This document shows positions 1,238-29,289 of a stretch of 64,000 bases of DNA, in pieces (position 1 is the first letter of the stretch; each line of letters begins with the position of its first letter). This DNA is from Psammoneis japonica (Eukaryota), in assembly GCA_008632985.1 (NCBI GenBank), contig QPGO01000009.1:434001-498000 (forward strand), written 5' to 3'. The notes below the pieces were generated by a model that worked only from the letters and a program-made list of their open reading frames with translations, ran no database searches and was not told the DNA's origin. The translations under genes and the position numbers were made by a program.

Positions 1238-1953
1238 GCTCCAGCACCTCCCACAGTTGCCACAATGAATCCAATGCTGTCAGCGCCATTCAGGCAACTG
1301 CCACACCCTGCACTGTTCCTGCCACACGTCTTGCTGCAGGCAATGACGTTTCTATGGCTGTCGTGTTCCCAAAATGTCAAAAGTGCGATCGCACTGTCTC
1401 ACGCTCTATTTTGCCACGCTCCAGCGCCTCTAACAGGTGCCACAGTGAGTGCAATGCAGTCAGCACCAATCAGACCCCATGCTGTTCCTGCTGTGCGTGT
1501 TGCCACAGGTGGCAACGTTTCTATGGCTGTCATGTTCCCACAATGTCAAAAGTGCGATGTCACTCTCTCACGCTCTGTTTTGCCACGCTCCAGTGCCTCT
1601 AACAGGCGCCACAGTGAGTGCAATGCAGTCAGCACCATTCAGACCCCACGCTGTTCCTGCCACACGTGTTGCCACAGGCAATGACGTTTCTATGGCCATC
1701 ATGTTCCCACAATGTCAAAAGCACAATGTCACTCTCTCACGCTCTATTTTGCCACGCTGCAGCGCCTCCCACAGTTGCCACAATGGATGCAATGCCGTCA
1801 GCACCATTCAGACAACTGCCACACCCTGCGCTGTTCCTGCCATGCTTGTTGCAACAGGTGATGACGTTTCATGGCTGTCGCATTCCCATGACATCAAAAG
1901 TGTGATCGCACTGTCTCTCACGCTCTATGTTGCCATGCTCCAGCGCCTCCCAC
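1238..1953. repeat. Tandem repeat, ~4 units of ~170-190 bp
   Basis: Recurrent blocks gctccagcgcctc, tgcaatgcagtcagcacca, gacgtttctatggc and tgtcaaaagtgcgat. Confidence 0.85.
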
Positions 1954-3823
1954 AGAGGATGAATCAACAGAAACGGGAACTGTGTGTCTTTGCACAGTGT
2001 GGGGCACTGCATCATCTGGCACTGAATGGTTGTGTCCAGTGGTTGGTGGCGGCGCTCCATTCTGTTCCCATGGAATGCCGAATGTGCCGAAACCTGCCTG
2101 AGTGGCGATCCATTCTGAGTCGGTGGTGGAATGGCTTGGTTGCGACAGCGGAACGAGTCTTGGCACCGACTCAGGATGCATCTCACATGCAACATGGTTG
2201 GATTTGCTTTTTGACACAAAAGAGGCAACAGCAGTGGTGGCAAATAATTTGTTGGAAAAATCGTCATCGGGCTCCGCATTTGGTCCAAGAAATGTACACT
2301 CAAGGCATGTGTCTTGCAGGTCGTCAGTGCAGTGCAATGAACGGTGGATCACAACTCCACTGATGTTTCTTGCATCATGCATCCGATGTTCCTGCTCCAC
2401 GGCACAAGACTCAACGCTTGTTTTTTCATTCGACAAGCACCAATCACAACTGTCGTTTGCACAGAGGAGTGGATTGGCTGTTGTTCCACGAAAAGTTTGC
2501 GACAAGCCATTGCACTTCTGCAAGCGCCACCTCTCCTGTTTTGCCGTCGGCTGTTTTCGCACTCGGTGGTGACATTTCGATTGAACACATGGAACGAAGA
2601 GTCACGATTCATGACTGGATTTCACTGCCAATGGCTGCTCAATCGTCAGTTCGATCTCATGAAGTGCAGAGTTGCTTGGATCGCATCTTGTCAGCAACTA
2701 GAAAAGGGAAACAATCATCAAGTCAAGAAACGATTTTTCTCGAAGACGTTGTCCACCTTCTTCAAGACAAGAAAGAGGGTGCTTTTCACACACTCATGGA
2801 CATGGATCTTGTGCCTGAGGACTGATTCGATGATTTATCCTTGAGTCAAGGTTTGTCACAAAAGTGCGGTTTCGGATCAATGAATGCTCTGCGTTTCAGC
2901 CCGGCGAAGTGTTCTCAATGTTTCCGCTCCACCATCGTCCGCCGAGGTCATGCTGTGCTCCATGTCATCAACAAACTTGTTAAAGTTGTCATTGTGCAGC
3001 AGACGAATCATGCAATTTCGCAAATCGTTTGCTTGGCGATCTTCCGTTTGTCGTCTTGCGCATTGCTTTGTGGGTGGGAGAGGTGTGGTTGAGTTTCAAA
3101 AGAGCTTGCTTGATTTGACAGCAAGTTGGTGCGAGCACACGCTCAACCCAATGCTGCAACGCATTGAGATTGTCTTTCTTCTTCCCAAAGGACATGCCAT
3201 GCCCGTGCTCTGCAATCCTCGACCACCATCATAAAGAAAAATGCAGCAAATGCCAAGAGCAATGCAATCGTACAGCACCTCTAAAGAACCACCTGACACT
3301 GTGATCCGCTCAACAAACAATGGATCATCCAACTTTTCGTGGAGTGCCTGAATTGCCGCGACGAGGAGTCGACAGTCTCAACTGGTGAACAAGGCATTTG
3401 AGGCAAATCTGCACCAGATGGCCCTCAAACCTCAAACACATCTTGGTGAGGCAGGAAGCTAGAACGGTTCGCAAGAAGACGTCACTGCCAATCACCATCT
3501 TGCGCAAGTGAGGAGTGTTGTCCGACTCGTCAGGACGAGCAGCTTTGGAGCAAACAGCCTGGATTGCACAAGTGCCATCGGCCAACACAACGTTCTTGGC
3601 AATCATTTTGGGAGCCTCTCCTTCTTCGTGCTTCTCTTTGTGATTCTCTTCTTTGGAGATCAAGAATGGGGTCAGACCTGGCTGTTCTGAATGAGTTTCA
3701 AAGGCATCCACAATGGTTTCCTCCGCACCCATGTGTTGCCCAATGTCCAGAGGCATGTGCACATGACGTTGCCAGAAGAAATGTCCTCGACAAAAACCAA
3801 CAACTTGGGCAAGATGGACAACA

Positions 3824-4288
3824 CCGCATTCAAACAATTGAACCGATTCTGACCTTGTCCCATTGTTCGTCTTTTGATGGCAAGCTCCGACAGCAACAAT
3901 GCCTGCCATGTCCGAGAGCCACACGGAAATCCAAATCGGTCACAATCGGCTTGTCCAGGAACATTGCCAGCAAGAAGAACCTGACGGTCCAAGGCAGAGT
4001 TGCATTCAAACAGAAAAGCACCACCAGCACAGTCTACACGGTCACGTTTATCGTGCCTCCAATTGCAAGAATGAATCGTCTCGTCTCCATTCAACGTGAG
4101 GGACTTGCCAAAGTCGCAAGCAACCTTTCGTCCAACCAATTCTTGGCCAGTGCCTGTCCATGATTGCTTGTGACTGGGTGGAAGGAGCGACAGTGTCGAC
4201 AGACAACAACCTCGTTTGGAAACTTGGATGTCATCTGCCGACATCTCCGTCATGCATCGTTGGTCGTCTCTTTGTTGGTGTTTTTTTT
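3824..4288. repeat. Dispersed direct repeat, copy B (paralog of 133-599)
   Basis: Same sequence as 133-599. Retains TA at agtcTAcacg (4031) and gtttATcg (4047) where copy A has CA/TG. Confidence 0.9.
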
Positions 4289-4337
4289 TTCCTTTTTTTG
4301 CGCGACTGTTAATGACTAAACACATGTATAAACCCAA

Positions 4338-4560
4338 TTTTTTTCTCACATTTGGAAAAAAATGAGTTTCGGCGAAGAAAAATGATTTTTTTCGAACGGT
4401 GGGCCGACAATTTTTCATTTTGAACAAATTTTTCTCACATTTGGAAAAAAAGTGAGGTTCGGCGGAGAAAAATGATTTTTTTCGAACGGCAGGCCGACAA
4501 TTTTTCATTTTGAGCAAATTTTTCTCACATTTGGAAAAAAAGTGAGGTTCGGCGGAGAAT
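4338..4560. repeat. Tandem repeat, ~2.5 units of ~90 bp; possibly a transposon subterminal array
   Basis: tttttctcacatttggaaaaaa(a/g)tgag(t/g)ttcggcg occurs three times, and aatgatttttttcgaacgg twice. Confidence 0.8.
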
Positions 4561-4703
4561 TTTTCTCTTTTGTTGCGTTGTTGTTGTTGTTGTTGTTGCT
4601 GCTGTCACAAGTGATGTCAACAACAACAACACAAAACAGGATGATGAGTTGCCACTGTGCATCACAGTTAAGCCACACACTTGTGTTCTTGTTCTTTACA
4701 ACG

Positions 4704-5563
4704 ATGCCACAGGTTGAGAGTTTGGCAACGATCTCCAAGGCGGAGTGGATGGATCTTTCCAAGAGGAGTGCAACAATCACTCTACCCCGTCCGGACACGT
4801 TTCTTTTACGACAATCAAGGTGACTTGCACGTCTTTAGCAGACACGTGGAAGAACAAGAAGGAAACGGTGATGCCACAACTTGACACGTCAAGAATGATT
4901 TGTGGAAGTGGAGCAGCAATCAAGGCTGGATTCCACAAAAAAACAGTGGTGCTCCCAACCCACAGTTGGCGTCTGCCTGCTCCATTTTACGAAACAAGCC
5001 CACCCTGTTTGGTGGTTGGGATCCACAAAAACCAGGACTGGTGGAATGATTCCAGACGATGTCGTGCAATTGGAGGATGGAAGCAATCAATGGAACACCC
5101 TGGAAAACATCAAACCACCCGACGGACCCAACAGTCGTCATGTCGCGGTTGCTTTGCATGATGACTGCGTTTTGTTGCACACTCATCGCTGTGCCAATCA
5201 CATTCTTGTCATGACTGCTGCACATAAAAGGGCAGTGGCGTGTCCATTGAGAAGCAAGCCACAACGGGTGATGCCCCCTCACCACGTGGTTTGCATGCCG
5301 CCGAATTGATGTCGAAAAACAAGCTGCTGGTGATGTGTGGAGCCGCACAAGATGGGACCATGTCCAATGAGGTGCTTGTGTTAGATGCATCCACACAGGA
5401 ATGGACACGTGTCGAAATGACCAATGATGCTCCGTGTCCTCGTGCTTCGCCTTGTCTGTGTGCCGTGCAAGATGGTGTTGCCGTGCTGTTTGGTGGTGCC
5501 GTGCCAAAAAAGAATGGTGTTCGAGCAAATCTCGCTTTTTGGCTCTTGAGGATCCCTTTTTGA
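4704..5563 (+). pseudogene. Kelch-repeat protein pseudogene
   Basis: Kelch motifs split across frames: PSGHVSF, TGDAPSPRGLHAA, VLVLDASTQEWTRV, APCPRASPCLC...LFGG. Frameshifts, stops and no Tyr. Confidence 0.7.
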
Positions 5564-5659
5564 CTCCAGCGGGTTGTTGCCGGAACCAAAGCAGGCATCC
5601 AATGAAGACGCACAGTGGCGGACAAGGCATCCAATGAACACATCAAGGCCCAGTCGTTA

Positions 5660-7135
5660 AAGTCCAATGAAGTCTCCATCAGTTAAAAAGAAAGGGACGT
5701 GCTGCTCAAGCATCTGTTTCATCTGTTGTTCCATGTGAGAATGGCGATTGTGGATGCAACGACCATTGCAATGAAACCCATCCCTGACACGACGCATTTC
5801 AAGAACGTTCTCCACGGTGCAATCTTGGGATCTAGACGATTGTGAATCTGCGGCGGAAAGACCGAGATGGGACATCCCAACATGCTTCCCATGAGACTCA
5901 CCACCATGTCCAGTGAGTTTATGGTGCATGCCGCGACAATTGCAAGCAAACACACACACACACAGCCGATTGAAAGTTGCGTGTTGACAGCAATGTCAGC
6001 ACACGCCTCTTGATCCAATTGTCAGAAGACAGGCTGGGATGCCGGTGTTTTGCTCTGCGACAGTCATGGAATGACAAGCAGTTTGAAGAGCGGGGAAGTT
6101 TTGGAGTGGAATGGTGCAAATGACCACAAGGCAGTGTGCCAGTTGCACAGAGGTTGCCAAGCAGCCGGTTGGAAGACTGACTGTCAGGACAGTTCGAACT
6201 GAGTCTCCAAAACCCGTCCAGTGCACCATGCCGAAGAAGGCTTCAAAGCCAATGATGCAAAGAACAACCCTCTCACAAACATCAGGAAACTTGGCACGCA
6301 CTTCCTCACCGTGGACAGCTTCTTGTGAAGGAACCAGCAGCGGCAATGGAGCCTTCAAACAGCAAAACCTGCACACAAGACACAAACAAGCATGCAAGCA
6401 TCATCGAAAAATGCAAGATTGAATTTCCGCGAAATGTCCTGGCCAACATGCTGAGTCCTGCACTTTGTCTTACACTTGTTCCGATGAATGAATGCCATTG
6501 GTCCCGAGCAACAAGGACTTAGACTGGTCGCGCTCTTGCAAATGTCTTCATGCCAGACTGGCTCTCCTCCCGCGGTTTGGCGTGCAGCACGACCCAAGCA
6601 AATCAGCAATCCACACAGTGTCAACGCACTGGCAAGCAAGTTGGCAGGTGTCAGCTTTCAAACATCATGAATCCACGACAGGGGCATTTAAATCAGCACC
6701 ATGTCAATCAACCACCATCGTGCGCTCCAGTCCAACCCAATGAGCAGGAGAAAGGACGAGTGCAAGTTTTGCGGGACAAAAATCAAATGCGCCAAACACA
6801 CTCCCGATTGCATCAAGGCAATTCCCAGCTTGACCAAGCTCTCGCCGGTTGGTCCCAGAGCACGATGTGTCAATTCAGGACAGGTCAGCATGACAACCTT
6901 GGCACAAGATGATGGCACCGACCCACAGTCGGCATTTTTGTTTTTGGGTTGCAGCGGCTCTTCCTCGTGTTTGAGAATGGGCTTGACGGAATGCTCCTTC
7001 TTGTTTTCGAGAGCCCAACTCTTGAACAAGCAATCCGAGGAAAACAAAAACACGACAGCAGTCAAGGCCAAGATAGGAAGCGCAGTGGATAGCTAGAGCA
7101 ACGGCGTGCGGTAGATACAAAATGGCAGCCGGATT
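5660..7135 (-). pseudogene. Amino-acid transporter (Aa_trans / SLC36-38-like) pseudogene
   Basis: Family-typical segments AILYLPHA, LT(C)PELT(H)RALG..GESLV, GVCLA(H)LIFVPQNL, FGDSVRTVLT and VVSLMGS.LGCP. Frameshifts and internal TGA stops. Confidence 0.75.
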
Positions 7136-8906: not shown

Positions 8907-10839
8907 ATGTCGTCGTCTTTAGATATATCAGATTCTCCAACTCCATCCATTACTCTGGCACGGTCCATGCCTCAGGGTGTAGATGAGTTAGAGGACATGA
9001 TCCTTTTGATTTGTTCAAGTCTCAAATCGAAACAGGACAGACCGAAGCCAAGGTGGATGCTATGAAGCGCCTCGCGGTCGTGGCGTACAGCATGGGAACC
9101 AACGATGCTCTCCAAAAGTTGATACCCTATCTCGCCACGATTGCAATGAAACAACAACAACCCCACGAAGATGAGCTCTTGTTGGAACTGGCGAGTGAGT
9201 TGAAAAAGCTCGTGCCGTCGCTACTCAAGGGCACTCAGGCACTTCCGCTCTTGCCCATTTTGGAGCGATTGGCGTCTGTCGAAGAAACCGTAGTCAGAGA
9301 TGTGGCGGTGGATACAATTAATCACGTGGCTCCTGAAATTAGCGACTCGGCCGTATTGGTGGGCATGGCGAAGCGTCTTGTTGGTGCTGATTGGTTTACA
9401 GCCAAGGTGAGTGCGGCGGGTATGCTGCCCAAGCTGTACGAATGTACGCGAAGCGCCGAGCTTGTGGATATGATTCGAGAGTTGAGTGTCGATGATGCAC
9501 CCATGGTTCGACGGGGTGCCGCTACGCATTTGGGAACCTTCATGTCGTACTTGCCTCGTGATCAGTTGCAAGAGCTCTTGCCGGCGCTGCAACAATTGAC
9601 CACGGACGAACAGGACTCTGTACGGCTCTTGGCTGTAACATCCCTGAGTAAAGTGGGCAAGGCCTTTGAGAAGGATGCAGAGCTGTCGGTGCAAGTCGTT
9701 GTACCCATTATCAAGGCGGGAAGTACTGATCAGAGCTGGTATGTGTTGTACAGTATAGTTGTGTATTGTGATTGCTTGGATTGATCTGCTCAACTCACAT
9801 TTACTTTTTCTATATCCTCCTCAGGAGAGTCCGCAACAATTTGGCCAAGTGCTTTTCGGACGTGGCAGTCAATTTGTATTTGACGGAAGAATTCCAAAAG
9901 GAAAAGACTCTCGTCATGGCGTGCTTTGTCGCCCTGTTGCAAGACCCGGAACCCGAAGTGCGAGGTGCGGCCGTGGGACACTTGGCACGCATGGTGCATT
10001 GGGGCGGACCGACGCTATTTGCTAGCCATATCCAGCCCCTCTTGGCCGCCTTAGCGGATGATCCCATCATGTATGTCCGTTCCAAGTGTGCTCTGGCACT
10101 CATGGATGCCAGTGAAGGTGGCACGTTGGAAGATTCCACCATTTTGCAAGCATTTGCACACTTGCTCGAGAACTTTTTGCAGGATGAATACGCCGAAGTC
10201 CAGTTGCACGTGTTGGACAATTTACACCGCCTCTCTCATTTATTGGAAAAAATGCAGGGCGTCGTGTCGGCTATTCTCAGCATGACCAAGGCACCCAATT
10301 GGCGCGTCCGACAGGGGGTCGCCAAGCTCTTGCCGCACCTGTGTGAAGCACGGGGTGTTGACTTTTTCGCATCCGTCTTGTTGGAACCAGCCTGGGAGGC
10401 GTTGCTGCTGGATTCGGTTGCTCATGTCCGCATGGCTTGTGTCCACGGTGTGCCACAGTTGTGCCGTGTGGCTGGACCCGAATGGATCCAATCCACCGTG
10501 TTGCCACTCCACGTGAAACTCTATCAAGCCAACTCGTCTTCTTATTTGATCCGAATGACTATTTTGCACGCTCACGTGGAAACCGCAAAGGCATGCAACT
10601 CACAACAGCCTGACTTGTGGTTCAAAGTTGTTTCTATAATTATTCAAGAAGGACTTGTCGACAAGGTTCCCAATGTCCGCATGGCGGCTGCCCGGGGGTT
10701 GACTGAAATCGTGTCGGGCAGTCCGACCAATGCGGATTACATTCAATCCAAAGTGTTGCCAGCGTTGGAATCTAGTATCAAGGATGAGACTGACGAGGAT
10801 TGTCGTCATTTTCAACAATTGGCGATTGAAGCCATCTGA
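8907..10839 (+). CDS. PP2AA: Protein phosphatase 2A scaffold subunit A (HEAT repeats); intron 9739-9824; apparent 1-nt frameshift near 9000
   Basis: EDELLLELA, LASVEETVVRD, DWFTAKVSA, DDAPMVRR, DEQDSVRLL, SWRVR (joined across the intron), NWRVR and DKVPNVR are PP2A-A motifs. Confidence 0.92.
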
Positions 10840-11208
10840 ATGGTTGTAGTGTTGATGATGTAGCGTTTAAGAAATCAGATTGGGTATTTTACTGTTAGCT
10901 TTTAAAAGGTTTGGTTGTGTTTGGAAAGCTTCTGCCTCTGGTTTTGTAAGGTTTGACATTTTCACACCAACACACTAGCACTCTACTCTCGTCCGAGAGA
11001 GTTGCGCTTCTGGCAATCATCGCCCGTAAATGAGTCGTTAAATAGGCGCTTCATGATGTCATATTTTCCATCGTGTTCAGACTCAACAGAAACTGTCTTA
11101 GCCTGTCGTAGTGTCCATCTACTGGCTAGAAAGCAGCTGCTCGCTAACAGCTAGAGACTCTATACCGTAGACGGGAGGAAATAACCTCACTGCAGCAAAC
11201 TCTGTCTG

Positions 11209-11370
11209 GCTGTCACAGAGCACGGGTCAAGCTTGGTGAGCCTCATTCGTGATGTGAGCTCAGAGCTCAAGAAGCCTGATTTGCCAGTTGTTGTTGGCGG
11301 ATTGGGGGTGGACAGCATTGATTCAGGTGGCAAGAGCAAGCCAAAAGCCTTCATTTCCGAAGCATTCAAC
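11209..11370 (+). pseudogene. Fragment resembling the C-terminal part of a sialate O-acetylesterase (SASA/DUF303) domain
   Basis: E(H)GSSLVSLIRDVSSELKKPDLPVVVGGLG resembles EYxxNLxxLIxDxRxxLxxPxLPxVxGELG. Confidence 0.4.
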
Positions 11371-11399
11371 AAACTGCCGCAGTCATGGACAAGTTTAAA

Positions 11400-14300
11400 A
11401 ACACACGAAGAACACCAGGACCAGCGTTCATGTCCGAAAAGGCAGTGGTGTTGTCAGAACCAAGACATGTTTGGCAGCCAATGTGGGACAGAGAGTGGTT
11501 GTTTTGGTCTTCTCTGGGTGCAGCAGCTGGTGGTGGCAACAGTGCAGAGGCAAGAGAGAGTGAGAGAGTGTGGGCGAGCATGAGGCCATGTGATGTGAAA
11601 CGTTTTTCTGGCACAGAGATTGTGTGGCCTCTGGCACATGCCCTTGCACCATGCCACACCATGGAAAAGTTCTTTGCATCATGATCACCCAGCTGATGCA
11701 GAGAAAGCAGAAGGAACAAAGAGTGTTGTGCAGGCAATTGGGCAGCATGCAGCAGCTCTCTCTGAGCCTTGTGGCTCTCCAGACAAAATGCTGTGGGGGG
11801 CTCAATTGGCACATTGCTTTTGCTGGTTGGTTGAGCAATCCTGTTTGTGAAGAGTGCTTGTTTGGCATGTTGTCAGCTGTGTGTCAACAGCAGCCAGCTC
11901 CCACAGAGCTCACAAACCAGCAGATTGGCTTGCAAAGAACCTTTGCACTGATTGGCTGAGCTTTGTCAAAGAAAAACCAGACCCAACATTTAAAGTGCCA
12001 TTGCACTCCTTTGCCAGCTGTGCCAACACTGGCCAACTCACACTCCCAGTGCACAAGTGTGTGCAACAGGAGAGGACAATGATTTGCCAGGATGGGCATC
12101 ACTGGGAGGTGATGCCCCGCCAAAATGACCACCAGCAACAGAGTGAGTTCCGCGAAGCGCAGAGCACTTCACCTTTTTTGCAATCTTTTTGAGTCTTGGT
12201 TTTGCCATGGCAATCCTGTTGAATGCCCCACAAGTGGTGCAAGTCACATGATCCTCAACAGAATCTGTCAGAGCCTCTCTGTCCTTTTGCACTTGGCAAG
12301 CAGTCTTGTCTTTTTTTGCATGTGGCAGCCAGCTCAGCTTCTGCCTGCAGCCATCATGCTGATTTGTGGGTGTCTGCATCATGTCTGTGCACTGCCAAAT
12401 TATGAGGCTCCCACAGTTCCCACCTGATCTCCAAATGCGTGATCTGATTTGCCTGCCCACACCAGAGGGTGTTGATTTTCCTTTTGGTGCTGCACCAAAA
12501 GTCCCAACTCCCTGAGATGTGTCCTTGAAAGGTGTTGCACAGCTTGGAGCATCAGCCATTGAACACTTGGCACCAACCAATGTCCATCATCTGTGCTCTC
12601 CACAAATGCAAAAGATTGGGGGGACATTGGTTTGCAAATCATCAAGTCTTGAAACCATTCTTCTGAAGAGGACAAGAGAAAGTCATGCCAGGAGGCATTG
12701 TGTCAATTTTGTCACAGCATTGCTGGAGTCCTTGAAAGCACTTTTGTTTCCAGGCTTCATTGTTTGGGCATTCAAGGATGTGATCACATCCTCCATGGAT
12801 GGCTGCAAGCAAGGTGATGATGAGGGCACACTGGGGTCATGTCTGTTGGCAATTTGTTTGTGGGCTTGATTTGACTTGACTGCAGAAACATGTTGCTTCA
12901 AAAATCTGAGGATCAGGGTGGCACAAATGGACCAGTCAATCTTGTCAGCAAAGGATTCACATCATTGGTGAAAAATGGGCAAAGCTGCAGTGGAAAAACA
13001 CAAAACAGTGCACAGGCTGCTGCCCCTCCCGCTGAAGATTGAAGTTGCTTGCAAGTGCACTGGCATTTCTGCTTGTTCTTGTTCAAAAGCAAAGTGTGCT
13101 CTGTCAAACCTCCACTCTTGACACTTGTCTGCACTCTGTCACTTGCTTTTTTGAACCTTGGAAGCACTGCCAAATTGACAATGTGCCCTTTTGATGGTGC
13201 AAACACAATGTGGAAACACACAAGCCATCACAAAACCAGTGCATGTCAAGGCAAGAGATGACTTTGATCAGCTGCTGCTGCCGTCTCAAGAAAGTGGCAG
13301 CAGCTGCAGCAGTGGTGCATCATGAAATGACCCCAGTGATGACAGCAAAGAAAATCCACCTTCTTGGTCATGCTCCCTTTTGGCAGCCCTTCTCAGCTGC
13401 GTGGCAAGCAAGAAGAAAGCAGGGCAGCAGTGGCATGGCAGGGTCAGCAGTGTGGCAGTGCTTCCTTCAGCCACCTGTGCCTCCTTGATGTGGAACAATG
13501 GAAGGCTGCACTGAGGGTCAGCACAAAAGCAATTGGCTGTGAAAGGGTGCTTCCCATGGCTTGCAAGAACATCTTGAAAAAGACTGTCAGTTCTCTCCTC
13601 AACTTTAAGTGCAAGAAGCCACATGGCATGATGGCTGAGCCACCACCAGAGAGGCTTGCACAATTTCCACAAAATTGCTTGCAGATTCAATGCTTGGCTC
13701 ACCACTGCAACTTCTTTGTCGCTGTCGCCAGCTTCTGCTGTGGCCCAATTGCATGAATTTGTCACATGTGCCATTTGCTCTCCAAGGACATTTGGGTGTT
13801 CATGGGTCAGACTCAAGACTTGGCTGTGCTGCGTGTGCAGACAACTGCTTCAAAGCAATTGAGCTCTGCCCAGAGCTCCAACAAGTTGGTTGCCCTCTGT
13901 CACTCTCTGACTCTGCTTCCTCCGCTGTTTGGTGCTCCAGGGTGAACAATGGTTGGTTGAGCTCCAGGTGCCAAAGAGCTGCAAAGGGTGGTGGGTGGTG
14001 TGGCTGGGCTGCAAGTGAACATTTGCTCTCTTGCAGTCTCATCAATGTGCAGCGCAACATTGTCAAAACAAAGGAGTGAGCTGCAGCTTGAGCACTGCTG
14101 GCATGCTCATGCACTGCTTCTGCATTGCTGCTGCCAGCAACACATGCTCATTGCAGAAACAACTGCACCACCCACTTGTGCAGGAGTTGGAGACACAGAC
14201 CATTGTCTTTCATTGACAACAGTCTCCGGTCATGACACAGCTCACAAGATTGCCAGGAACACAGGAGTTGCCAGCAAATTTTAAAAAATCTTGCTGGTGT

Positions 14301-17300
14301 GTGCTGGCCAGCACATGTCCTGTTGTGCTGGCTTGCTCCCCCTTGTGCCCTGTTTCTGGTTTTTTGCCAGCAACTGATGATGCCCGCCAGCAAATTTGTT
14401 CCCCCTGCCAGCAGCTTCAATTTCTCATCCCCCTTGCCAGCAACATGCATCCCTCATCTGGATCACAGTTTTCCTGTCCCCCCACCTGCAATGAGTTTTG
14501 CAGCCTCCTGCCTCATTCCCCCCTCACCTGCAAATGATGAGCACTGTTGCTGCCTCCACCATGAGCAACAACGATGATCTGTCTGACATCGTGAGCCCCT
14601 GTGCACAGGTTCTAAGGTCATGTTGTGTCATGGACAACCACAAATGCACCACATGAGATGACTGGTGTCTTTTATTAAAATGCCCTCTTTGCCACAAATG
14701 TGCTGTTCTTTCAACACTTGCAAAATGTTGACCAAGTGAGTCCTTGCCAAAAATTGTCAAACATGCTTTTGGTGTGTGGTGCAATCCACCATGCCCTTTG
14801 CCAAGGCCTTGTCCAAACAGCAGAGCATGTCCATCAGCAGACTGGCATTCTCTGCAGACAGCATTGACATTTGCGTGTGCACCACACAACAACCCCGGCA
14901 GCAACAACAACAAGACTTGCTCCAGAGAGGGATGCTCCAGACTGACATCTAAAAGAGAAATCCACAAACAAACCAAACTCAATTGTGAGTCAAGGTGCAC
15001 TGCCCTCAGCTTTCTCACTGTGGTGGGTCCCTGGTGCAGGATGCTGCACTGCCAAACAAAGCTGCTGGTTGTCCATTTTCAACGGAACAGGTTCCCAGCG
15101 CAGCTTTAAAACTCAAACAACTTGAGAACCAGTGCAAATGCTCCAAGCCAGAGATGGATGTCTTGGATGAGCTGGTCTCACCCTGGTGTTGGTGATCATG
15201 ACAAGATGGATGGAGGGAAGGGGGGGACTCATCATTGCAATTGTGTTGTGTGGGTTCTTTCATTGGTTGTCTTGCTGTGACCCACTTGCACAACATTGTC
15301 CTTTCTGCTTGCAGTTGCATGCCAACTCTGAGTGACCTTGAGTGCTGTTCTCTTGAGCAGCAATGATGTCAGCAAGCCATGACTGTTTGTGCAAGTGATG
15401 CTTGGACAGCAGTGTCATGAGATGGCTGCTGAAACAGCATCTGAAGTCTGACAGAAATGTCTCCAATCCTTGTTGGAAGTGATGTCATGTGAGCTCATCC
15501 AGTTCCTGCACGTGGCTTGTTTTCTGAGTTGCAGGTGTGCTGCATTGTTGTGACATTTCCACACACCTTGGGAGATGTTGAGAAGCTGCTTGATCCAATG
15601 CCACACCCATTTGCTCCTGTTTTGCATGAGGATTTCAGTCAACAGTGCTTGTCTTGAAGTTGCAACCACTCTTTTGCAATCCATCCTTCAGGCAATCCAT
15701 CCTTTGGGCAATCCATCCAACCCAATGGCGTGTTTTGGCTGGATGGTGCATCAGAGGATCAGGCTGTCAAGGGGATCATGCATGGCTGGTGGATTCCAGA
15801 GTTGTTCCTCCATGCCTGAAGGTGATGCTGAGCTTCATCAGAGAGGCTGCAAGCCATGTTGTTTTTGTTGATCCACGGACATGTTTGCAGAGCAATTTGT
15901 TCCAGCGATTGGTGGCTTCAGGGCACACAAGGATGTGAGTTGTTGCAATGAAAGGAGGGTCCAATGTGCTGCACCTGAAAGTGCCATCTCACTGTTGCTC
16001 ACTGCTGCCCCTCTTTTCCTTTGGGGCATTGGCACACTCTGCAATGTGACAATGAAGGTGGCAATCAAACACCTGATGGAGAGCAGCCTCTTGGCTCTCA
16101 GCGGCAGTCTCAATGTTCAAACACCACATGAACAAGAAAAATTGCCAAGGTGCTGCTGCCAAGGACAACCTCAGCAGTTGCTCACAATGCTCAGAGATGA
16201 GGGCAACCTTGTCTGCTGGCACAGATGGCTGATTAGAAAGACAAACAAATTTGCCATGACAGAGTGACCCAAAGGATTCAATCAAAACACAGCAGACCTT
16301 GTGGATGCTTGCCACAACAGGCACAGCACCACTCTGAATCACTTCTTGAGTGGGCAGGTTCTTTTTCAATCATTCCAACTTGGCAGTGGTTGCAGCCAAA
16401 ATCCATGCAGTTGCTGTTCCATGATGCCTGCGTGTGTGTCTTCACCACAATGACGGCTCCTTGTGGCATCCAGTGTCTTTTTAAAAGGCCTTTTTGGGAT
16501 TTTGTTGTCTTCTGCATTTTTTGATCCTTTCCTCCTGAATCAAGAGAAGCACACCAGTGCAACAAGTGTCCACACTGGCGACATTCATGAATGAATGAAT
16601 GAATGAAGAAGTCATCAATGGCACAACATCTCAAGTCAGAATGTGAAATGCCATGGCATTGTGCGTGCAAAATCCAGGTGTTGAAAGAATGACATTGCCA
16701 GAGCTTTGATTTTTAAAACGCTGTCCCCACCAAGCAATCTCTGCAGCACTGACTCTGTCCAATTGCCCCAACTTCCAAACTGCAAATGCTGCATCCACTC
16801 ATGTGGAGATTTTGGTCATGAGGACATTGCAGAAAATGAGGGGCTTGACTGCACTCAAGAGAAGTGAACCTCAAAGATCAGGCTGCCAAGAATGGATGGA
16901 ACAAAGATGATGGAACCCCATTGATCCCTGATGATCCAACAGAGCCAGAAGGGAGTTGCTGATTCTGCACTCCATGGACTTCCACACCAGATCCATGCCA
17001 CAGAATTTTCCTTCTTTCAAAAATGTTTGGCCTCATCAACAGTTGACACACATGCCCACTGCACTGCCATTTCACCAAATCAAATGACCAAACAAATTTC
17101 CCACCCCCACTGCTGACACCAAGCAAACTGATTCCAACATGCTGCCAAAAAAGATGAGAGAAAACAGCAGACACACAACTCTTCTCACCAGCCTGAGTCA
17201 TCGCATCATGCCAGCTGCAGTGCAGTTGTGCCATGCACATCATCTCAGCCACACTCATTGAGGAATGTGCATTCTTTCTGAACATGCCCCACTGCAAAAG

Positions 17301-18350
17301 GAGCTCATGCAGGGTGTGCAATGCTTCCAGACAATGGACGTGCATGTGTTGTTGTGGGAGGTCATCACATGGGCACTTCCAATGGCAAAGCCTCTGTCAT
17401 TGCCGTGGCTGTGCTTGACACACCACAATGGGTGAGCACAACAACCACAGTCAGCAGCGCACCTCTGAAAATTGAGGCAACACTGGCAAACAACATGAGG
17501 AGGGTCATCATGACATGGATTTGGCTTGTGAAACAGAGCTTTGTGGATGGCAGTCATGCTCACACATCCAACCAGCCAGCTCTGCTGGAGAATCACTTTT
17601 TGGTCAGCCTGGTGACCAAAATGAGCATGTGCACCCTTGGGCAGAACATCAGGGATGAACAGAAGTTTTGATGACAGAGATGCAGCAGCACTCTGAGATC
17701 CACCAAAACCTCCAGCATCAGGTGTCTCAGATGCAGCACAGTTGTTGTTCAGTGCATGGATCAAATCAGAGATGTTGTTGAGCCGACATCTCCTCAGAAA
17801 ATGCTCAAGGGGTCTCAGGAGCATGGGCTGGTGGGTGCACAGCATTGGAGAACTCCTTCCAGCCCCTGAATGTCCAATGCACAGTGGTGGGGGCAAAGAT
17901 GAGATGAGAGATGCCAACAGCAAGAACCACTTTGGCGAATTGAGCTTGAGGGGCTTCTCTTCAATTTTGTGGCCCATCATCTGTCGGGGGACCCCAAAAC
18001 AATGATGCAACTGGTGGTGCATCAGCAGGGTCAAGGGTCTCAGACATGATCAGTTTGCAAAGGATGTGTTCCCAAAGCAGGTCAACAGTGTGGTGCTGGG
18101 GGGTCTTGCTGCGGATGATCAGTCAGTTTGTGAAGGACACGAGGATCCTGAAGCAGGCCAACAATGTTGTCCTTGGCCCTTGCATGCTTTGAATCTTCAA
18201 AAATTGATCCAAATCAACAACGGCTCCATTGCAAAGGCTGTTGAAGTGCTTTGTGACTTCATGATTGCGGCACGTTGGGCAAAGACAACATCAGAAATCT
18301 CCTGGATGGAGTCAAAACGGGCTTCTTCTTGGGGGTGAAAGTTGTCATGG
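11400..18350 (-). mobile_element. Highly degenerate transposable element, possibly a non-LTR retrotransposon
   Basis: Minus-strand VKPLIFCNVLMTKIS (~16850) and MPQGAVI (~16465) resemble RT motifs in the expected order. Otherwise unrecognisable. Confidence 0.35.
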
Positions 18351-19399
18351 TTGATGAGGTGCACAGAATTTTCGATCATGCTCCGTAAAAACCTGGTGCT
18401 GGTCTACAGAGCCTGTGCACCAATGAAAAAATCAATTTCTGGATGAAAGTGGTGGCCAGCTCGCTCAGCTCGCAAGCCAAGCAAACCACAGCGGAAGTTG
18501 CAAAACAGAAGAACAATGACCTGATGAGGCCATGACCTGTCAGAGCACCGATGGTTTGAGCAACAAGCTGAAGAGCTCCCCACAAACTGGTGACAGTGGA
18601 CAACACGTGTGCCCAGCAAGCAAAGAGTGGGAGAAGATCTGAGAAAGATCGATCATGCATCGGCATCTCGTCCATCTAGAATCGTCTGGCCGTCATCCAC
18701 ACACAGTCTAACCTTGTACAGTAAGGTCAGCTGAGAGATCCTAAAACATGAAATTCAAAATCGTGGACTTCCAAGAGAACTCTATGAAGTCCTGGACGCA
18801 TGGACAAGATCGATTTCAAGAACGAGAGAAAGGTGGTCTTTACGGAAAGCGCAAGCTGGCGGGTGCGCTCTCGGCTTCAAACATGAACCGCTTTTCGACA
18901 AAGAAGAACGGATCGTGAAATATGAAACGCCTGAGGATTTTGTCAATCTTCTACGAGACGAGCTACAGCAAAGTTGAACAAGAGGAAGCAGCTTCTAATA
19001 GGAAAGGATGCGACAGGAACAAAAGATCCGTAACAGACTGGCATTCTCGCCGATCTTCAGGACTGTGGCTTCGACTTGATGACAAAGGAAGAGAAGCCGA
19101 TAGTAGCAAGGACAACGGGTTCACAGAAGATGATGTAACCCGGGGGGTCGATTGGTTTCAGTGCACCCTCGCTCCGTGATCAATTTCAATCCGTCAATTT
19201 CAATCCAACGATTGGAATCATCTTTTCACTTTTATTTATCATCGCCATCATAAGAAAACAGTGTTGAATCATACATTATCTTGTGCATTTGTGGCTGTCT
19301 GCTGTGCAGTCGAATGACTTTTCGTGTTGCGCATACGTTCTTTCTTGGGTCGTGCTTGTCGCCGACTGCGACGTCAAATAAGCAGAAGTGGCATTATGT

Positions 19400-20317: not shown

Positions 20318-21340
20318 TCAACTCGTCCAGCACCTATTTCTGTTTCTTTCTTCGACGGTGCAGTCGGGTTTACCAACGTTTCCAAAAAGAGCCTGTGGCG
20401 TGGCTTCTTCTTGCAGAGCAGTGATCCACTTTTGCTTCTTCTCCTCACTCGCCGCCCTCATTGTGAAGTGGAACTCCCGATTTACAACTTGAAACATGAA
20501 GGGGTACTTCCCGTCCTCTTCCTGTACATCTAATCTTTCAAGAGGCATGGCTCGGACGAGCTTGGAAGAATCCTTTCGCGAGTAATAGTACAACATCCGA
20601 TCGCCTGCCGTAAAGTACCGTTCTTTCCACGGCTTGGGTTTTAGGCAGGCAGAGCGCACACGTCGCTTGCAGAGCAAGACACCTCCAAAGTGCACTTCTG
20701 GATCCTTTGGCGAAACAGTAACTTGTTCGGTATTGAACTGACGATCGGCTTGTTCCAGAATTTCATACTCCATTGGATATATTGCCCTTTTCAAACAAGC
20801 GGTGAGGCCTGTGAGAGCGTGGCATTCTATATACCACGAAAAATTCAGTGTTTGTCAGCAGTTTGACACATCGTGAGTAAGCGAGAGCGTGGTAAGATGG
20901 ATATGGTTCTCCTGAGGTCGTTCCAGGCTGGTAGTCTTCATTTGCTCCCTGATGTATCCAGTTGAATTGAAGAGCAAAGTGAAGGGACTGTTGAGAAATG
21001 ACTGAAGCCAACCGCTCCAAGATGGCGTCGTCTCAATCAGCTTCTAGATGAAAAATCATATCAGACAACTGCGATAAGTAAAACTCGATTCCATGAAAGA
21101 CTTCTCGGGATTCAGCAATTTGGCAACGAAGAGTGCCTTGAATTCAACAGCTTTGGGGTCGTCACTAAACTGCCATATTAGCATGGCAATCTTTTCCATA
21201 TTATGAACCTTTCCTTGATTGTCTCGGCCAAACACATCATCGATAAGCCTAGTGAATAGCAAGCACGTGGGCAAGCACTGGAGTGAAGAACAGGCAGTAC
21301 AATGGATACGAAATTGCGACGAGTACAGAGCCGTCTTCAA
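20318..21340 (-). pseudogene. Fragmented PH-domain / phosphatidylinositol 4-kinase-like gene
   Basis: SQQSLHFALQFNWI resembles the PIK helical region. PH domain: WKERYF...MLYYY...MRAASEEKKQKWITALQ. Pieces lie in three frames and no kinase domain is present. Confidence 0.55.
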
Positions 21341-23040: not shown

Positions 23041-26000
23041 TTATGAAACGTGGCTCACAATGTATCACTTTTTGCCATCACGCTTTCAAGCATCTCCTTA
23101 GCTTGCAATGGAGTACAACCATTTTTCTTCATGTTGACACTCAACGTTTCCCAACTTGGAGAGTATCGATCATAACAACAAGACGGAGAAACCTTGTCCA
23201 AGTGGTCAGAGCAACCTTCACTTATACGAAAAGCCTCAATTATTTCCACGGATCTCTGCCCCTTCTCCTCTGCCGTAAAGCTGATTGCGTACAAAGAGTC
23301 CTGACCTCTCCATCAACTGTCCTGATAGATAAAAGACGGATCCAAGTTTCGTCGCTCATTGGCGCTAAGAGATCAAGGTTGGTGCAATTTCGTGTAGTCT
23401 TCGGAGGACCTTCAAATCATACAATATCAAATGATTCTCAAAAACCTGAGATACGTCAAAGAGCCACGGCAGCGATTGGCGGGTGAGCTCCTCTGGCTTC
23501 TGTTGTTGGGCTTGCCAGCTTCCATTATCGGTCCCATGAAATGAAACACTCCAAACCTTTACATATCAGGGACAGATTCTCATAAGACCGTGTTCAGCTA
23601 ATATGTCCATTTTCAATTTGACGCTTGGGTACTTTCAGCACCTACTAGTTCTCATTTGGGCATGGCGTGTTTCCCTCTTCGTCATCATTCGCTTCGAGAG
23701 ACTTGCCTCTTCGACGATACTCCTGAGCAATCGCCAGACCCAAGGCCATTTTTCTTTTTATCGTCTCAGTTGGAACAAAACGTCTTGCTTATAGAGGGTG
23801 CTACTAGTGAACGTCGCAAGCCGCAACCACGCGTTTGTCTATGGGAAATCTAATGAATTCCAGGTGCACCGCAAGCTTCTCACCGATATACCTTGACATT
23901 CCGTTCCCCACATGCCCATTGGTGAAGAACAAAATGTGCACTTGCGGAAGATTATTTCGTATCATTTTGGACGACCCTATCGACGTCTTTTCCTCTTGCA
24001 ATATCTTCAGGAAAAAGAAACATGGAATGGTACGACAAGTAATAAAGAGCAGCTTGCGGTGCGATGCTACGACGAGGGTGCTTTCACAATCAATGTTTGG
24101 ATCATTGTAGTCCAAGTGTGTATCTGGTGAAGGGCATCATTGTAAGGCTGCTCTATCTTGTACAACACTCGCATCATTGGCACTGTGAGCCGTTCTGCTT
24201 CTTCCTGATGGGCGGGATGGACCAAGAGAGGCCAATCATTGATGCAGAACAGACATCCCAAGTCCCACAACATAGTGGGATCAGGGAGAGAATGACAAAG
24301 ATGTGACTCTTCACTGTTCGCATTGCCGTTCCGCCTCCATTTCAAAGCCGGGTGCATGCTTTTTGTGGTTCGAAGCAGCGATCCTTTTTTCAGGGCATCC
24401 TTTTCCATTCCTGTTTTGATTTTTATAGTCTCGAGCACCGACTTGGAGAAGAGTTGAGGGTGTGACTGATCGATCCATGTGATGCCAAGCCCACTCACGC
24501 AACTTCCCAAAGGACGGAAAACTCCCGAAAAATTTCCTCACCCCCACAAACCCTTTTTGCCAGCCTTTTTTGGTCCCGTGCAAACCAAAACATGACGCCT
24601 AGATGCATGTGTGACAATGCCATGTTGGAGGCTCCACTTCACAAGTGGAAACCCACATGATTCCTTGATTGTCAGTCACAGTCAATGTGCAGCATCAATT
24701 GGTTTCCTTTGTTTGAACTTTCCATCTTGCAAGCACTGGAAATGTTGATTCTCAGTTGCAATGTCTGGCTCCAGTCAAATGCATGGCAACACACATTGTT
24801 CATTTTTTAAACTGAGCACAGAGTTAAAGAGCCCATGGCAAATAGAAGGGAACAGCAGAAGGAGGCATGGAAGCAGCTGCAGCAGCAGAGGAGCAGAAAG
24901 GCCACAGAACACAGTGCACGGGGCATTTTGCAGAAGGATTGGGAGACAAGAAGTCAGTGTGGAGAGAGGAGGTGAAGTGAAGGGCATGCATGGAAAAATG
25001 GCAAATGAGGTTGCAGCCAAGCTTTTGAACAGCCCAACAGGGAGGAGAAGCAGAGCGGTGTGCTGCCAAAGATGTCACACTGGAGAGGCGATCATTCCAG
25101 GCAAAATCAGCAGAAAGAAGAGGGGCAGACGGAGGTGTCAGGGTGCAGAGAAAGGCAGAGTGGGAAGCATCAGAGTTGCAAAGGCCAGAGGAGGAGGACC
25201 ATGGGTGCTTCAGATGGGAGCAGGCAGAGGAGAGCAAAGAGCTGAAGAGAAGTTAATGGCAAAAGCAAAAGCCACCAAGGTGGTCAATGGCAAAGGGAAG
25301 AAAGAAGATGCTGTCATTGTTGAGCAAAGCAGCAAAGGATCTGTCAGCAAAAGATGCAGAAGGTCCAAGAAACTTCAGCCTCCCACTTCATTGGTGTGCT
25401 GTGCCTCAGTTGAAATGGGAGAAGAGGGAGCAGGCAGACCAGGAGGAGGATGAGAAGGAGCTGGGGGAATGGTGCACATTGACAGCAGTGCAACAGCAGT
25501 GGGAGGGAGCCAAAAGAGAAGCTGGGGTTGCATGGAAATGCCAACATCAGCAGGGCAGAGAAGCAGATGGGCGGGAAGCAGATTTGCACGCTCAAGGTGA
25601 GCACCCTTTTGGAGGAATGGCAGAGCTTGGCAAAGGGCCCAAAGGTCTGGGACACAATGAACAGGGTGTCCCAGAGGCCACTGGAGAGTTTGGATTGTTT
25701 GTGGCCCCATTGGCCAGAGAAGGCATGATTGCCACACAAGTGCTGAGGATGGCACAACCACAGGGACAGAGATTGTGGCAAGGGAAGGAGGAAGGACTGG
25801 GAGATGAGTTTGCACTGGGTGGCAACAACAATGCAGGTGCATTGGAGAGGCAAGACAGGAGCTCTGGAAGTGGCAGGAGAAGAGAAGGAGTGAAGAGGGG
25901 GAGGCAGTTGGTGGAAACAGGGGGAGAGAAGGCAGGGAATCTGCACATTAGAAGGAGAACCAGCTGGGGCGGCAGCAACCACTTGCTGCTGGTGAACATG

Positions 26001-26939
26001 ACATGGATGGCATGCCAAGCTGGGGACTGGGGAAAGCATCAGACTTGACAAGAGCAGCCAAGAGGACAAAGTGGAAAGGGAGGAGGCAGAAGCAAGAGCG
26101 GGAGCACAGTGGCAGAACATTGTGCATGCAGAGGCTCAGGGTTGAACAGGAAGGGCTGCATGGAATGCACCTTCATTTGGAACCAAGTCTGGGAAAAAGT
26201 TGATGCTGCACCCGCAACACATGGGAGAGGCTGCATCTCAGCAAACGCTGGATCCAACTAAAGATTCTGCCAACTGACACCCGGGATTTGTTCTTCTGCT
26301 GGAACTGCCTCCAACTCTTCCTGGTCTTTCTGTTTTGTTTTTCTTTGAAGTCTTCCAGCATCTTTGCCACTCCTCCCCACTCACACCCCCCAAATCTTGC
26401 TCAAGTCTGTGCACAACTTTGAGAGCACCCCGGATCTTGTTCAGTTTGTGCACAACTTCAAGAGCCACAAGCATCTTGGCAAACTTCTTGTTTTGACACT
26501 TGCCAGAGCTGCTGATGACTGTGTTGAGAAAGCTGCTGTCTTTGGCAAGAAAGGCAGGAGCTGGAAAGCGAGCCCCCCACAACAGAAGTGACTGGGCCTT
26601 TTTGTGCTCCCCCCTGGTTTGCACTCGTGATGAGGTTGTGAGAATTGGCTGAGACAGCTCAACTCATCCAGCAAGGAGACTGCCGTCAACGGGCCTTTTC
26701 TTGTGCACAAGAGCTGCTGCCAGCTGGCTGGAGCAGCCACCAGCTAGCTGGCAGCTAGCTGGCAGAGACGCGCACTGTGGACGAGCTTGCTCGCAGGTCA
26801 AAAGTGCTTGATGCATTGTTTGAAAATGTCGAACACCTCAAAATGCTTGCTCCGGCATTAATTTGACAATCATGAATCATCGAACTCACAATTTTACAAG
26901 CTGCTTGTGCTGCTGTGAATGACGACAACAACGATGCAT

Positions 26940-28673
26940 TCGCCCAGGGCATTTCTTTTGGGTTGCTTGTCACTGCCAGCTTCCTTTGTTCCAGTGGCAC
27001 AGCAAAAGAAGTTCATTCAATTGAAGGCATCAGCAGTGGCTCAATTGTTGGAAACAATGACAATGCCAAGAATCAAGAACTTGATGATGTTGCCACCGAA
27101 TGTCATCGCCACGAGGACAGGAACATGAGTCGTTTGGTTTCCAGTCATCATTTGTCAGCACCATCACACAAGCTCACTCCCGTGAGGGGGCACAGCAATT
27201 TTGGTGGAGAACTGTTGGATGGAAAGCTGCATTTCATGTGCAGGAAGCATGCTCACACGAAGATGCATGCGTGTGATTGTTTGACTCAAAAAGCTGAAAT
27301 CGTCGAGGGTGTAGAGAGGAGTCCATGTTGTGGTGTTCTTCCTGAATCACTGATGGCAATGAATGGAAAACTGCACTTTGTCACTCCTGGGAATAGAGGG
27401 GCCCAGCTTTGGGTGCATGATCCCATTTGAGACACAACGCAAAAGCTTGCAAATTCTGTGCACCAGCATGTCGCATCCACCACAACACCAGTGGACGGAA
27501 AGCTCTGCTTTATTCACTCAAAGAAGCATGATGTGGCTGCGTGTGACCCTGAGACTAACTCGATTCAAAGAGTGTTTTGGCCCATGAAACTTGACAGTCC
27601 CCACCCCTGCAGGAGTTTGACGTCAAAAGATGGAAAATTGCATCTCCAAGGCCATGGCAATCTCCTTGTGCATGACATGGAGAAGACCAAAACTAAGAAG
27701 GTTAAACTGGAGTCTTCGACAATGACTCCCTTTGATGGAAAGTTTTGCTTCTTAAACGCAAGAAGAAATTTTGGGGGGAACAGATGTTTGACATTCGGGA
27801 GCAAGATCAAAGAGTGACTCCACCAGGGTGCTCGCCAGCTACAAGTCAGTGCAAAAACTTGCAGCATCAGGTGGCAAGTTGTGTTTCATTGCCCAAGACA
27901 AGCAAGAAAACTTGCTTTTCGCATGCGATCCCATCGCAGACACACTTGGTGTGATGTCGATTCCTGACAGGAAGCTGTGTTGTCTTTCAGCCAAGCATGA
28001 TGACAAGTTGCTTTTCAAAGGCATGAATTCCACTTGGCTTTACCACACAACCAACGAGACCAATGGTGGCAATGCTGATGGAGATGGTGTGTCAGACGAC
28101 ATTGACAACTGCTCGCTTGTTCCCAATGCTGATCAAATCAACTCTGATGGCAACGGCACAGGGGATGCTTGCACTGGCTGTCCATTCCTCTGCACTGTGA
28201 AACCTGGTGCCAACATGGGTGTTTTGAAGGTTGATGCATCACCAGGTCAATGCAAAGATTTTTCTTGCCCTGCGCACTTGTCACAAAAGTGTGCCAATCC
28301 CAAATGAGGGCTTTCTCTTCTTGTGACCAACTGTGAAGGCAACGGCACGTTGGTTTCAGATGCTCTGTTGGCAGGTGGACGCAAACCTGAGCTGGTGCGG
28401 ATTCTGAAGTTTGATGATGCGGGCTCAACACTGGTGGACACGGGCTTTGAAGGTGGGAAAATGAGACAAGGTGCAACAAATGAGCAACGTGGCAAGTGGA
28501 AGCATGATGTTGATCTGAAGGATCTTGAAGGTGCTGGGTGTTGCGCAGCCAAATTCAAGGTCTGTCAGCCTGACGGATGGGTCGTGCATGCAAAATCAGC
28601 ATTTGAGACAAGACAGCAAGCTCATCATGAGGCAGAGAGAAAGAATGCACTTTTGATTGCAACAGCTTTCTAA
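26940..28673 (+). pseudogene. Secreted beta-propeller (ELWxxDGT-like repeats) + thrombospondin type-3 repeat protein pseudogene
   Basis: Six GK(L/F)[H/C](F/L) repeats, PESLMAMNGKLHF...QLWVHDP, and [32 protein letters not shown]. Frameshifts present. Confidence 0.65.
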
Positions 28674-29289
28674 ACACAAAACTTGACACAACAGGTCCAA
28701 CAATGAAATCATTGAACAAAACATCAGAGTTTCCTGGACTGCCAAGCTGCCTTTTCTCAATTTTCTTGTCCAAAAGTCCGTGAATTTATTCTGATGCATC
28801 GCATTCAAGTGGAAGTTGTTTTCTCATTCGTTCATTGGCGACGGAGGCACTTTGGATGCATCAATGGGACTCAGCAGATTGAAAAATCCAATTTCCAAAA
28901 GACAGCCCCACACACTTTTCGCTCCGCCCTTGCTGGCTGCTTCAACGGGATCATCGGGAAACACCTTGAGATTGAATCCATGCTCAGTTCAATCCAAAAA
29001 TTGCACAATTTCAAGAGCCGCCACCCATGAAGCTTGGTCATGCCTGTTTGTCCCAGCTGTCCACAACCATGGATGGGTGCAGAGCATCAATGCACGAGTG
29101 CAATTGCAGTCACAATTCCATGGGGTTCTGTTTTGTGGGGCAGTTTTTTGGTGGTTGGGTGCAGTTGACAGTGTTGTCAACCCACGTTCTGGTCCAGAAC
29201 AGCCTTCGCCACTTCAACAGCAGTCAGCAATTGTCATTTAAAGTCTGCATCCTTGGCCTGCGCTGATTCCAGGGACCGTGTGAACCATC

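Follow-up and report, generated by a model that had tools for sequence, protein, structure and literature searches.

So far there is a single report of regional hypermutation restricted to the dinucleotide TpA, a preprint from 2026 that deals with a rhizarian alga. In mutation-accumulation lines of that alga, the chlorarachniophyte Bigelowiella natans, 231 of 302 new mutations fell in two integrated viral regions, where the AT-to-GC changes, all but one, lay at TpA and yielded TpG or CpA (Mettrop et al., 10.64898/2026.01.13.699255). The same preprint describes 124 clusters in the genome that are depleted in TpA and enriched in CpA and TpG, and proposes an ADAT2-like adenine deaminase as the candidate enzyme; its main text mentions neither flanking context nor CpG (10.64898/2026.01.13.699255). 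For diatoms, a literature search found no report of TpA hypermutation, and in the available text of a Phaeodactylum mutation-accumulation study CG, CC and TG, not TpA, are named as mutagenic contexts (PMC6604790). The DNA analyzed here is a 64,000-bp stretch of the diatom Psammoneis japonica (GenBank assembly GCA_008632985.1, contig QPGO01000009.1, positions 434,001 to 498,000), hereafter called the window, which is interrupted by blocks almost devoid of TpA (TA). These blocks are probably chromosomal domains that have undergone near-saturating, context-dependent transition hypermutation at TpA in place, presumably by an enzyme. What is new here is a diatom instance of this very recently described TpA hypermutation, together with a flanking-context fingerprint.

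TA-poor blocks were called by a two-state hidden Markov model (HMM) on the occurrence of TA along the window. Six blocks covering 32,171 of the 64,000 bp were obtained (Table 1), containing 133 TAs compared with 1,295 in the rest of the window (normal DNA); TA density was 1.0-5.8/kb by block and 39-42/kb outside. In a dinucleotide table compiled for 500-bp bins, the observed/expected ratio of TA was 0.00-0.18 in nearly all bins of the TA-poor stretches, and those of TG and CA were each about 1.5-2.4; CA/TG was approximately doubled in the focal block (11183-18676). All 10 block edges were abrupt, with 0-5 TAs per 600 bp inside and 20-36 outside. An initial annotation of this DNA had placed the focal block at 11190-18670, which agrees with the HMM edges within 7 bases, and had claimed that the TAs surviving in such blocks define the sequence context of a mutator.

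Table 1. Positions of TA-poor blocks, duplicated segments, an example survivor and coding features in the window
Feature	Position	Strand	Remarks
TA-poor block, CG mostly retained	1..7073		HMM: TA 5.8/kb, CG 40.7/kb
Focal TA-poor block	11183..18676		HMM: 15 TA in 7,494 bp (2.0/kb), 64 CG (8.5/kb), GC 49%
TA-poor block, intermediate CG loss	24162..33369		TA 5.4/kb, CG 21.7/kb; 50 TAs: 28 YTAR, 0 RTAY
TA-poor and CG-poor block	37053..39026		HMM: 2 TA, 13 CG in 1,974 bp
TA-poor block, CG retained	45985..48915		HMM; partial TA loss extends to ~49086
TA-poor and CG-poor block, continues past window end	60510..64000		HMM
TA-poor part of duplication copy B	40225..41350		Less depleted than copy A; HMM state normal
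Genic part of duplication copy A	49087..50907		Counterpart in copy B 41352-43192; internal control
Example survivor TTTAAA	11394..11399		Survivor list
HEAT-repeat (PP2A-A-like) gene	9011..10839	+	Pfam; left of focal block, TA content normal
PH-domain open reading frame	20318..20794	-	Pfam E 1.2e-12; normal DNA right of focal block
Kelch-repeat fragment in block 1..7073	5228-5560	+	Pfam E 8.5e-16
Aa_trans (amino-acid transporter) fragment in block 1..7073	5999-6400	-	Pfam E 6e-6

Relative to normal DNA, the blocks contained 0.10 times as much TA, 0.44 times as much CG and 1.44 times as much CA/TG, the values for AA/TT, AT and AC/GT being 0.93, 0.87 and 0.94 times, respectively. The gain of CA/TG (65.2/kb) was close to the combined loss of TA (36.6/kb) and CG (29.5/kb), 66.1/kb. 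No TG-vs-CA strand skew was detected in the blocks (standard deviation of z 1.18, compared with 1.41 in normal DNA), and neither strand bias nor transcription coupling of TA loss was found within the window. The initial annotation had described AA, AT and TT as still abundant, which the counts confirmed (0.93, 0.87 and 0.93 times normal), and it had discounted general GC-biased drift; this was borne out, since AA/TT, AT and GC content barely shift and the two copies of a duplication, described below, changed independently to CA or TG.

CG depletion was uneven, CG remaining at 6.6-45.7/kb across the blocks compared with 48-57/kb in normal DNA, and TA loss was deep in every block. CG was lowest (6.6-12.9/kb) in the blocks 11183-18676, 37053-39026 and 60510-64000, and the observed/expected ratios of TA and CG were both at most 0.1 in these CG-poor blocks. 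CG was retained most between G/C (GCGC, 10 of 26 expected; CCGC/GCGG also high) and least between A/T (TCGA, 5 of 58 expected; ACGA/TCGT also low). The CG loss looks like a separate decay of methyl-CpG laid over the TA loss, and two processes are at work in the blocks, TA loss and a slower CpG decay. Within the block 1..7073, a dispersed 474-bp repeat is present at 126-599 and 3817-4287 (92.8% identity); 17 of the 31 differences between its copies were CG against CA/TG and 5 involved TA, which indicates that CpG decay went on after TA loss was complete.

The survivors were grouped by the bases flanking TA (Y, pyrimidine; R, purine). Block TAs comprised 70 YTAR, 59 mixed and 4 RTAY sites, whereas the TAs of normal DNA comprised 249, 665 and 381, respectively, and the two distributions over 10 strand-symmetric NTAN classes differed strongly (chi2 134.8, 9 degrees of freedom (df), p 1.2e-24), so that the enrichment of YTAR among survivors asserted in the initial annotation was upheld. 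Block and normal counts were 29 and 44 for TTAA, 0 and 91 for ATAT, 1 and 190 for ATAC/GTAT, and 3 and 100 for GTAC. The skew was present in each TA-poor block, and the focal block alone gave 11 YTAR sites out of 15 against a baseline of 19.2% (binomial p 8e-6). It also grew with depletion: YTAR accounted for 22 of 54 TAs in the two CG-retaining blocks, which hold 4 RTAY sites, and for 20 of 29 in the three CG-poor blocks, which hold none. A TA was present at each of the 17 positions listed in the annotation, to within 1-3 bases. TTTAAA-type survivors have their TA at 11396, 11991, 14282, 15107, 16482, 16714, 24808, 29239, 63327 and 63562, TCTAGA survivors are at 5833 and 29661, CTAA at 14613 and 14950, and TTAG at 16234; the two sites given as exceptions are TTAT (12401) and GTAA (63210).

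Survival, taken as the TA content of blocks relative to that of normal DNA, was 0.66 for TTAA and approximately 0.2 for CTAA/TTAG and CTAG, compared with 0.10 for all TAs. The resistance of YTAR is therefore real but graded rather than absolute, and it extends to positions +/-2, T occupying position -2 in 57% of survivors and in 28% of normal TAs. For trinucleotides, survival was 0.04-0.05 for RTA/TAY and 0.12-0.22 for YTA/TAR, in keeping with the loss preference that had been proposed for RTA and TAY; TAG/CTA survived at 0.12, TAC and TAT at 0.04-0.05. When half-sites (TA plus two bases, per strand) were compared, the highest survival was found for TAAA (0.43), followed by TAGA (0.23, the second most resistant) and TAAC (0.16), and the lowest for TATC (0.021), TACC (0.013) and TACT (0.005), TACG being intermediate (0.064). 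A Poisson model in which the flank on each strand acts independently gave exposures of 1.95, 2.02, 0.98 and 0.27 for A, G, C and T, respectively, as the base 5' of T, corresponding to an R:Y rate ratio of about 3.2 and, for the 3' neighbor, to an order of TA loss of C ~ T, then G, then A. This model was superior to a uniform rate (likelihood-ratio test 126, p 3e-27).

According to the mechanism proposed here, TpA alone would be hit and converted to TpG or CpA, both strands being affected about equally, and a slower decay of CpG to TpG/CpA would be superimposed. The rate at each TA would be set by the bases 3' of A on each strand, which are those 5' of T on the other. Pyrimidines there would sensitize the site, TACT, TACC and TATC being almost extinct, and purines, above all A, would protect it, TAAA and TAGA surviving best. 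The two half-sites appear to combine approximately multiplicatively, so that RTAY would be lost first and TTTAAA, TCTAGA and CTAA/TTAG would be left. The likeliest agent would be an enzyme that modifies DNA and is guided to silenced chromatin, the state that may define the domains; the leading candidate would be an adenine deaminase that prefers T-A-Y and turns A into inosine, which is read as G. Purine runs and A-tracts can hinder base opening, and a DNA-shape effect of this kind, exerted by purine runs after A, notably A-tracts, might also produce the rule. Of the initial view that an enzyme or a DNA-shape-dependent process is responsible, the context dependence stood. The sequence itself shows the spectrum, the context rule, the independent changes in two duplicate copies and the confinement to domains; the enzyme, the base attacked and the role of chromatin state are what we infer, an effect of DNA dynamics being a less likely alternative.

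It is unlikely, although it is the best-placed of the alternatives, that T rather than A is attacked. A thymine oxidase of the TET/JBP type would then convert T at TpA in silent chromatin to 5-hydroxymethyluracil or base J, mispairing or faulty repair would give T to C, and the context rule would read as R favored before T. Thymine hypermodification exists in protists, and because TpA is palindromic, none of the present counts separates T to C on one strand from A to G on its complement. The sole experimental precedent, that of B. natans, favors deamination, by argument only.

Distinctly less probable than attack on thymine is that the survivors are not resistant at all, being either new TAs produced from CA/TG by ordinary C-to-T or G-to-A mutation, or short motifs (TTTAAA, TCTAGA) that selection or protein binding maintains. 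The absolute number of TTTAAA sites, 11 in TA-poor DNA compared with 5 in normal DNA, is an excess of the kind this would produce, and sites with TA in only one of the duplicate copies are unpolarised. The survivors, however, did not follow the contexts of CA/TG in the blocks, as new TAs should (chi2 102, p 5e-15): these contexts are near-uniform and predict about 24% YTAR and about 24% RTAY, and 53% and 3% were observed. Nor did they follow the base composition of the blocks, the distribution that the initial annotation had set against its own rule (chi2 101, p 8e-15), or an ORF-poor normal baseline (ORF, open reading frame; chi2 45, p 1.7e-10). Even at steady state, the skew demands a context-dependent removal rate, and the enrichment is graded across all 16 half-sites instead of being confined to one motif.

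An internal test of context-dependent TpA hypermutation was provided by a segmental duplication of ~3 kb, identified by self-BLAST (copy A, 47933-50907; copy B, 40225-43192), which spans a boundary between TA-poor and normal DNA; the right part of the block 45985-48915, from 47933, belongs to copy A. The genic part was 97-100% identical in most 100-column bins, with TAs common to both copies, whereas identity in the TA-poor part was 70-91% per bin. In the TA-poor part, 84 of the 97 substitutions between copies were transitions, and its 1,003 columns contained 17 double differences of CA against TG and 13 sites with TA in one copy and CA/TG in the other, in addition to indels and 31 other substitutions; no CA/TG double difference was found in 1,849 columns of the genic part. 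A double difference of this kind is the signature of an ancestral TA altered independently at either base. The comparison shows a TA-erasing process that was active after the copies separated, and that TA loss is a true mutation in place. Depletion ended at the matching homologous column in both copies (~49086 in A, ~41351 in B), which implies that local features, not chance, determine the domain, and the duplicated gene was spared, so that duplication as such is not the trigger. Six TAs were kept in both copies (CTAG three times, TTAC, ATAA and CTAC, none of them RTAY), and these repeat the context rule on a small scale, as a natural replicate. In the genic part, gapped stretches of 100-200 bp with lower identity resemble introns, and the ORFs scanned there (49109-49582 on the minus strand in A; 42530-42925 on the minus strand in B) gave no Pfam match.

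The duplication also bears on a sequencing artefact, in which modified TpA (and 5-methylcytosine at CpG) in heterochromatin would make the basecaller read A as G. Systematic miscalls at modified motifs occur in long-read data, and such an artefact would yield sharp domains, both products and a random choice of CA or TG between copies. The two strands would disagree, and a majority consensus would be expected to retain many TAs and to generate CG, yet TA and CG are both nearly absent from the CG-poor blocks, and the TA-poor part of the duplication carries the indels and other substitutions noted above. True TpA mutations of the same type were, moreover, called from Illumina data in B. natans (10.64898/2026.01.13.699255), and miscalling is accordingly a highly improbable source of the pattern.

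Other mutators that give clustered transitions are the least credible of all: repeat-induced point mutation (RIP) creates TpA, which is destroyed here, and the duplicated genic part (1.8 kb) was spared; polymerase eta, with its WA errors, also targets AA, so that its signature does not match an AA/TT content of 0.93 times normal; and foreign DNA that arrived already TA-free is at odds with the 17 discordant CA/TG sites, which postdate the duplication. ADAR RNA editing followed by reverse transcription fits no better, since ADAR is an animal enzyme with a 3' G preference, whereas TAG survives better here (0.12) than TAC/TAT (0.04-0.05), and both copies acquired their changes in place. ADAR usually favors U before the edited A (Discussion of 10.64898/2026.01.13.699255).

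Several points weigh against in-place, context-dependent hypermutation at TpA in the form given above. The ancestral TA contexts of the blocks were represented by those of neighboring normal DNA, which is a proxy. The fit of the multiplicative model was imperfect (deviance 24.2, 12 df, p 0.019), TTAG being observed 10 times and fitted at 19.9, and the excess of TTTAAA calls for either an ancestor richer in AT or a factor in addition to resistance. The strand-wise model predicts a product asymmetry of about 3:1 in mixed contexts; the composition of 346 against 206, for which the baseline is uncertain, hints at such an asymmetry, and the small polarised sample from the duplication (5 favored and 5 unfavored products) did not confirm the ratio. 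A minority of the CA/TG double differences could also stem from ancestral CG instead of TA.

With confidence somewhat short of even, it may be suggested further that the diatom has the same TpA-erasing DNA editor as the chlorarachniophyte, and that the pattern of T-A-Y-Y hit and T-A-R-A spared is the specificity of the enzyme itself. If so, the editor would be old or repeatedly acquired among algae of the stramenopile-alveolate-rhizarian (SAR) group and would rewrite whole chromatin domains, not only viruses, and the extended context would be a fingerprint able to single out a natural adenine (or thymine) editor of chromosomal DNA.

Gene content was surveyed in both compartments. The window is nuclear DNA of a eukaryote, and its parts of normal composition encode PPR, LRR, HEAT-repeat, aminotransferase, RNase II and PH-domain proteins (Pfam). 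For the HEAT-repeat protein, 73 homologues were obtained, and each organism-named one was from a diatom, with 54-60% identity in pennates and 45-49% in centrics; no near-identical homologue was present among the database matches. The best matches of the aminotransferase were also diatom proteins (~60% identity). The protein matches thus point to a diatom-like source and away from Bigelowiella. Among the metagenome loci found with the aminotransferase alignment, none of 1,364 1-kb windows was TA-poor and CA/TG-rich, compared with 55 of 127 in the present window; these loci were mostly bacterial (30-37% identity) and serve as a negative control only, uninformative on other diatoms.

For the blocks, Pfam scans covered 150 of the 153 stop-to-stop ORFs of at least 90 amino acids (aa) in all blocks and 150 of the 347 ORFs of 45-89 aa, the latter from 11190-30027 only. 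These 300 ORFs yielded no viral or transposon domain, and the blocks may be too degraded for recognition. The Kelch-repeat and transporter fragments in the first block (Table 1), remnants of genes of cellular type, imply that the mutated domains are not obviously viral or transposon DNA. Weak matches to OB_NTP_bind and TSP_3 were also obtained among the ORFs of at least 90 aa, and matches to Vps23_core and FOXO_KIX_bdg among those of 45-89 aa were below the Pfam cut-offs and were treated as chance. In the focal block, no Pfam domain was detected in the scanned stop-to-stop ORFs of at least 45 aa, and no long terminal or inverted repeats were found by self-BLAST. Long spurious ORFs are to be expected where TAA and TAG stops are missing, as in the TA-poor blocks. 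A search of 5.8 billion clustered proteins gave no homologue of the longest block ORF (46754-47854, plus strand, 366 aa, ATG start), which probably arose only because TAA/TAG stops are lacking and would mislead gene finders.

Some further features of the window were recorded. The block 1..7073 contains tandem repeats with a period of ~170 bp at 1232-1955 (77-85% identity) and a short tandem repeat at 4340-4559 (95% identity). At 25001-26000, the plus strand is strongly purine-rich (GC skew 0.35, AT skew 0.37), and overlapping ORFs of 230-260 aa on both strands are of low complexity, rich in E/K/G/R and without Pfam match. The segments 39001-40000 and 43001-46000 contain few ORFs and are AT-richer (GC 0.40-0.45) with normal or high TA, which indicates that non-coding DNA is not all subject to TA loss. 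A palindromic inverted repeat of ~210 bp is located at 45598-45810, with tandem copies at 45564-45909, in the AT-rich normal DNA that precedes the block start at 45985.

A saturated end-state in a diatom genome would extend TpA hypermutation to major ocean primary producers and would suggest that fungi are not alone in having a RIP-like mutator for genome defense or heterochromatin. The context rule provides a test, in that any deaminase or thymine-modifying enzyme put forward as the agent has to show the preference for TAYY over TARA, and it can be checked in the published mutation-accumulation data of B. natans. In practice, gene finders will call the long false ORFs that arise in blocks free of TAA and TAG.

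Among known systems, methyl-CpG deamination likewise turns CG into TG/CA in the blocks, but it is slower than the TA loss, follows another flank rule and varies from block to block. RIP in fungi is also a dinucleotide-specific, saturating transition hypermutation with sharp regional limits, and is thought to be a genome defense; it converts CpA to TpA, however, the reverse of the change seen here (TA 0.10 times, CA/TG 1.44 times normal), and it is triggered by duplication, whereas the duplicated genic segment here keeps its TAs. TadA/ADAT enzymes and the base editors derived from TadA convert A to I (read as G) with T/U 5' of the target, which resembles the T-A-Y rule. The loop sequence of native TadA is TACG, a context of only intermediate survival here (0.064), and T after A sensitizes as much as C. 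A TadA-8e variant prefers A in a 'YAC' context (review, PMC13109818). The likeness of the observed spectrum to the TadA signature, a comparison suggested in the initial annotation along with that to polymerase eta, lies in context only; a deaminase with the HxE...PCxxC zinc site would be the candidate for acting on chromosomal DNA domains in this organism.

The nearest counterpart is B. natans. As described there, targeting of TpA only, transitions to TpG/CpA on either strand and confinement to discrete regions were found here, the trace in B. natans being clusters of several kb depleted in TpA and enriched in CpA and TpG, most of whose sequences are without annotation, as in the present blocks. 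The differences concern lineage (a chlorarachniophyte rhizarian there, a diatom and hence a stramenopile here), depth (TA observed/expected 0.45 in the giant-virus region of B. natans, far above the bins of the present blocks) and extent, the depletion covering half of the window. The targets may also differ, being integrated viruses, transposons and other foreign DNA in B. natans, whereas here the scanned ORFs gave no viral or transposon domain and one block retains the Kelch and Aa_trans remnants; CpG decay accompanies TA loss here, and CpG is absent from the main text on B. natans. By this comparison, the blocks look like the saturated end-state of a process of the B. natans type.

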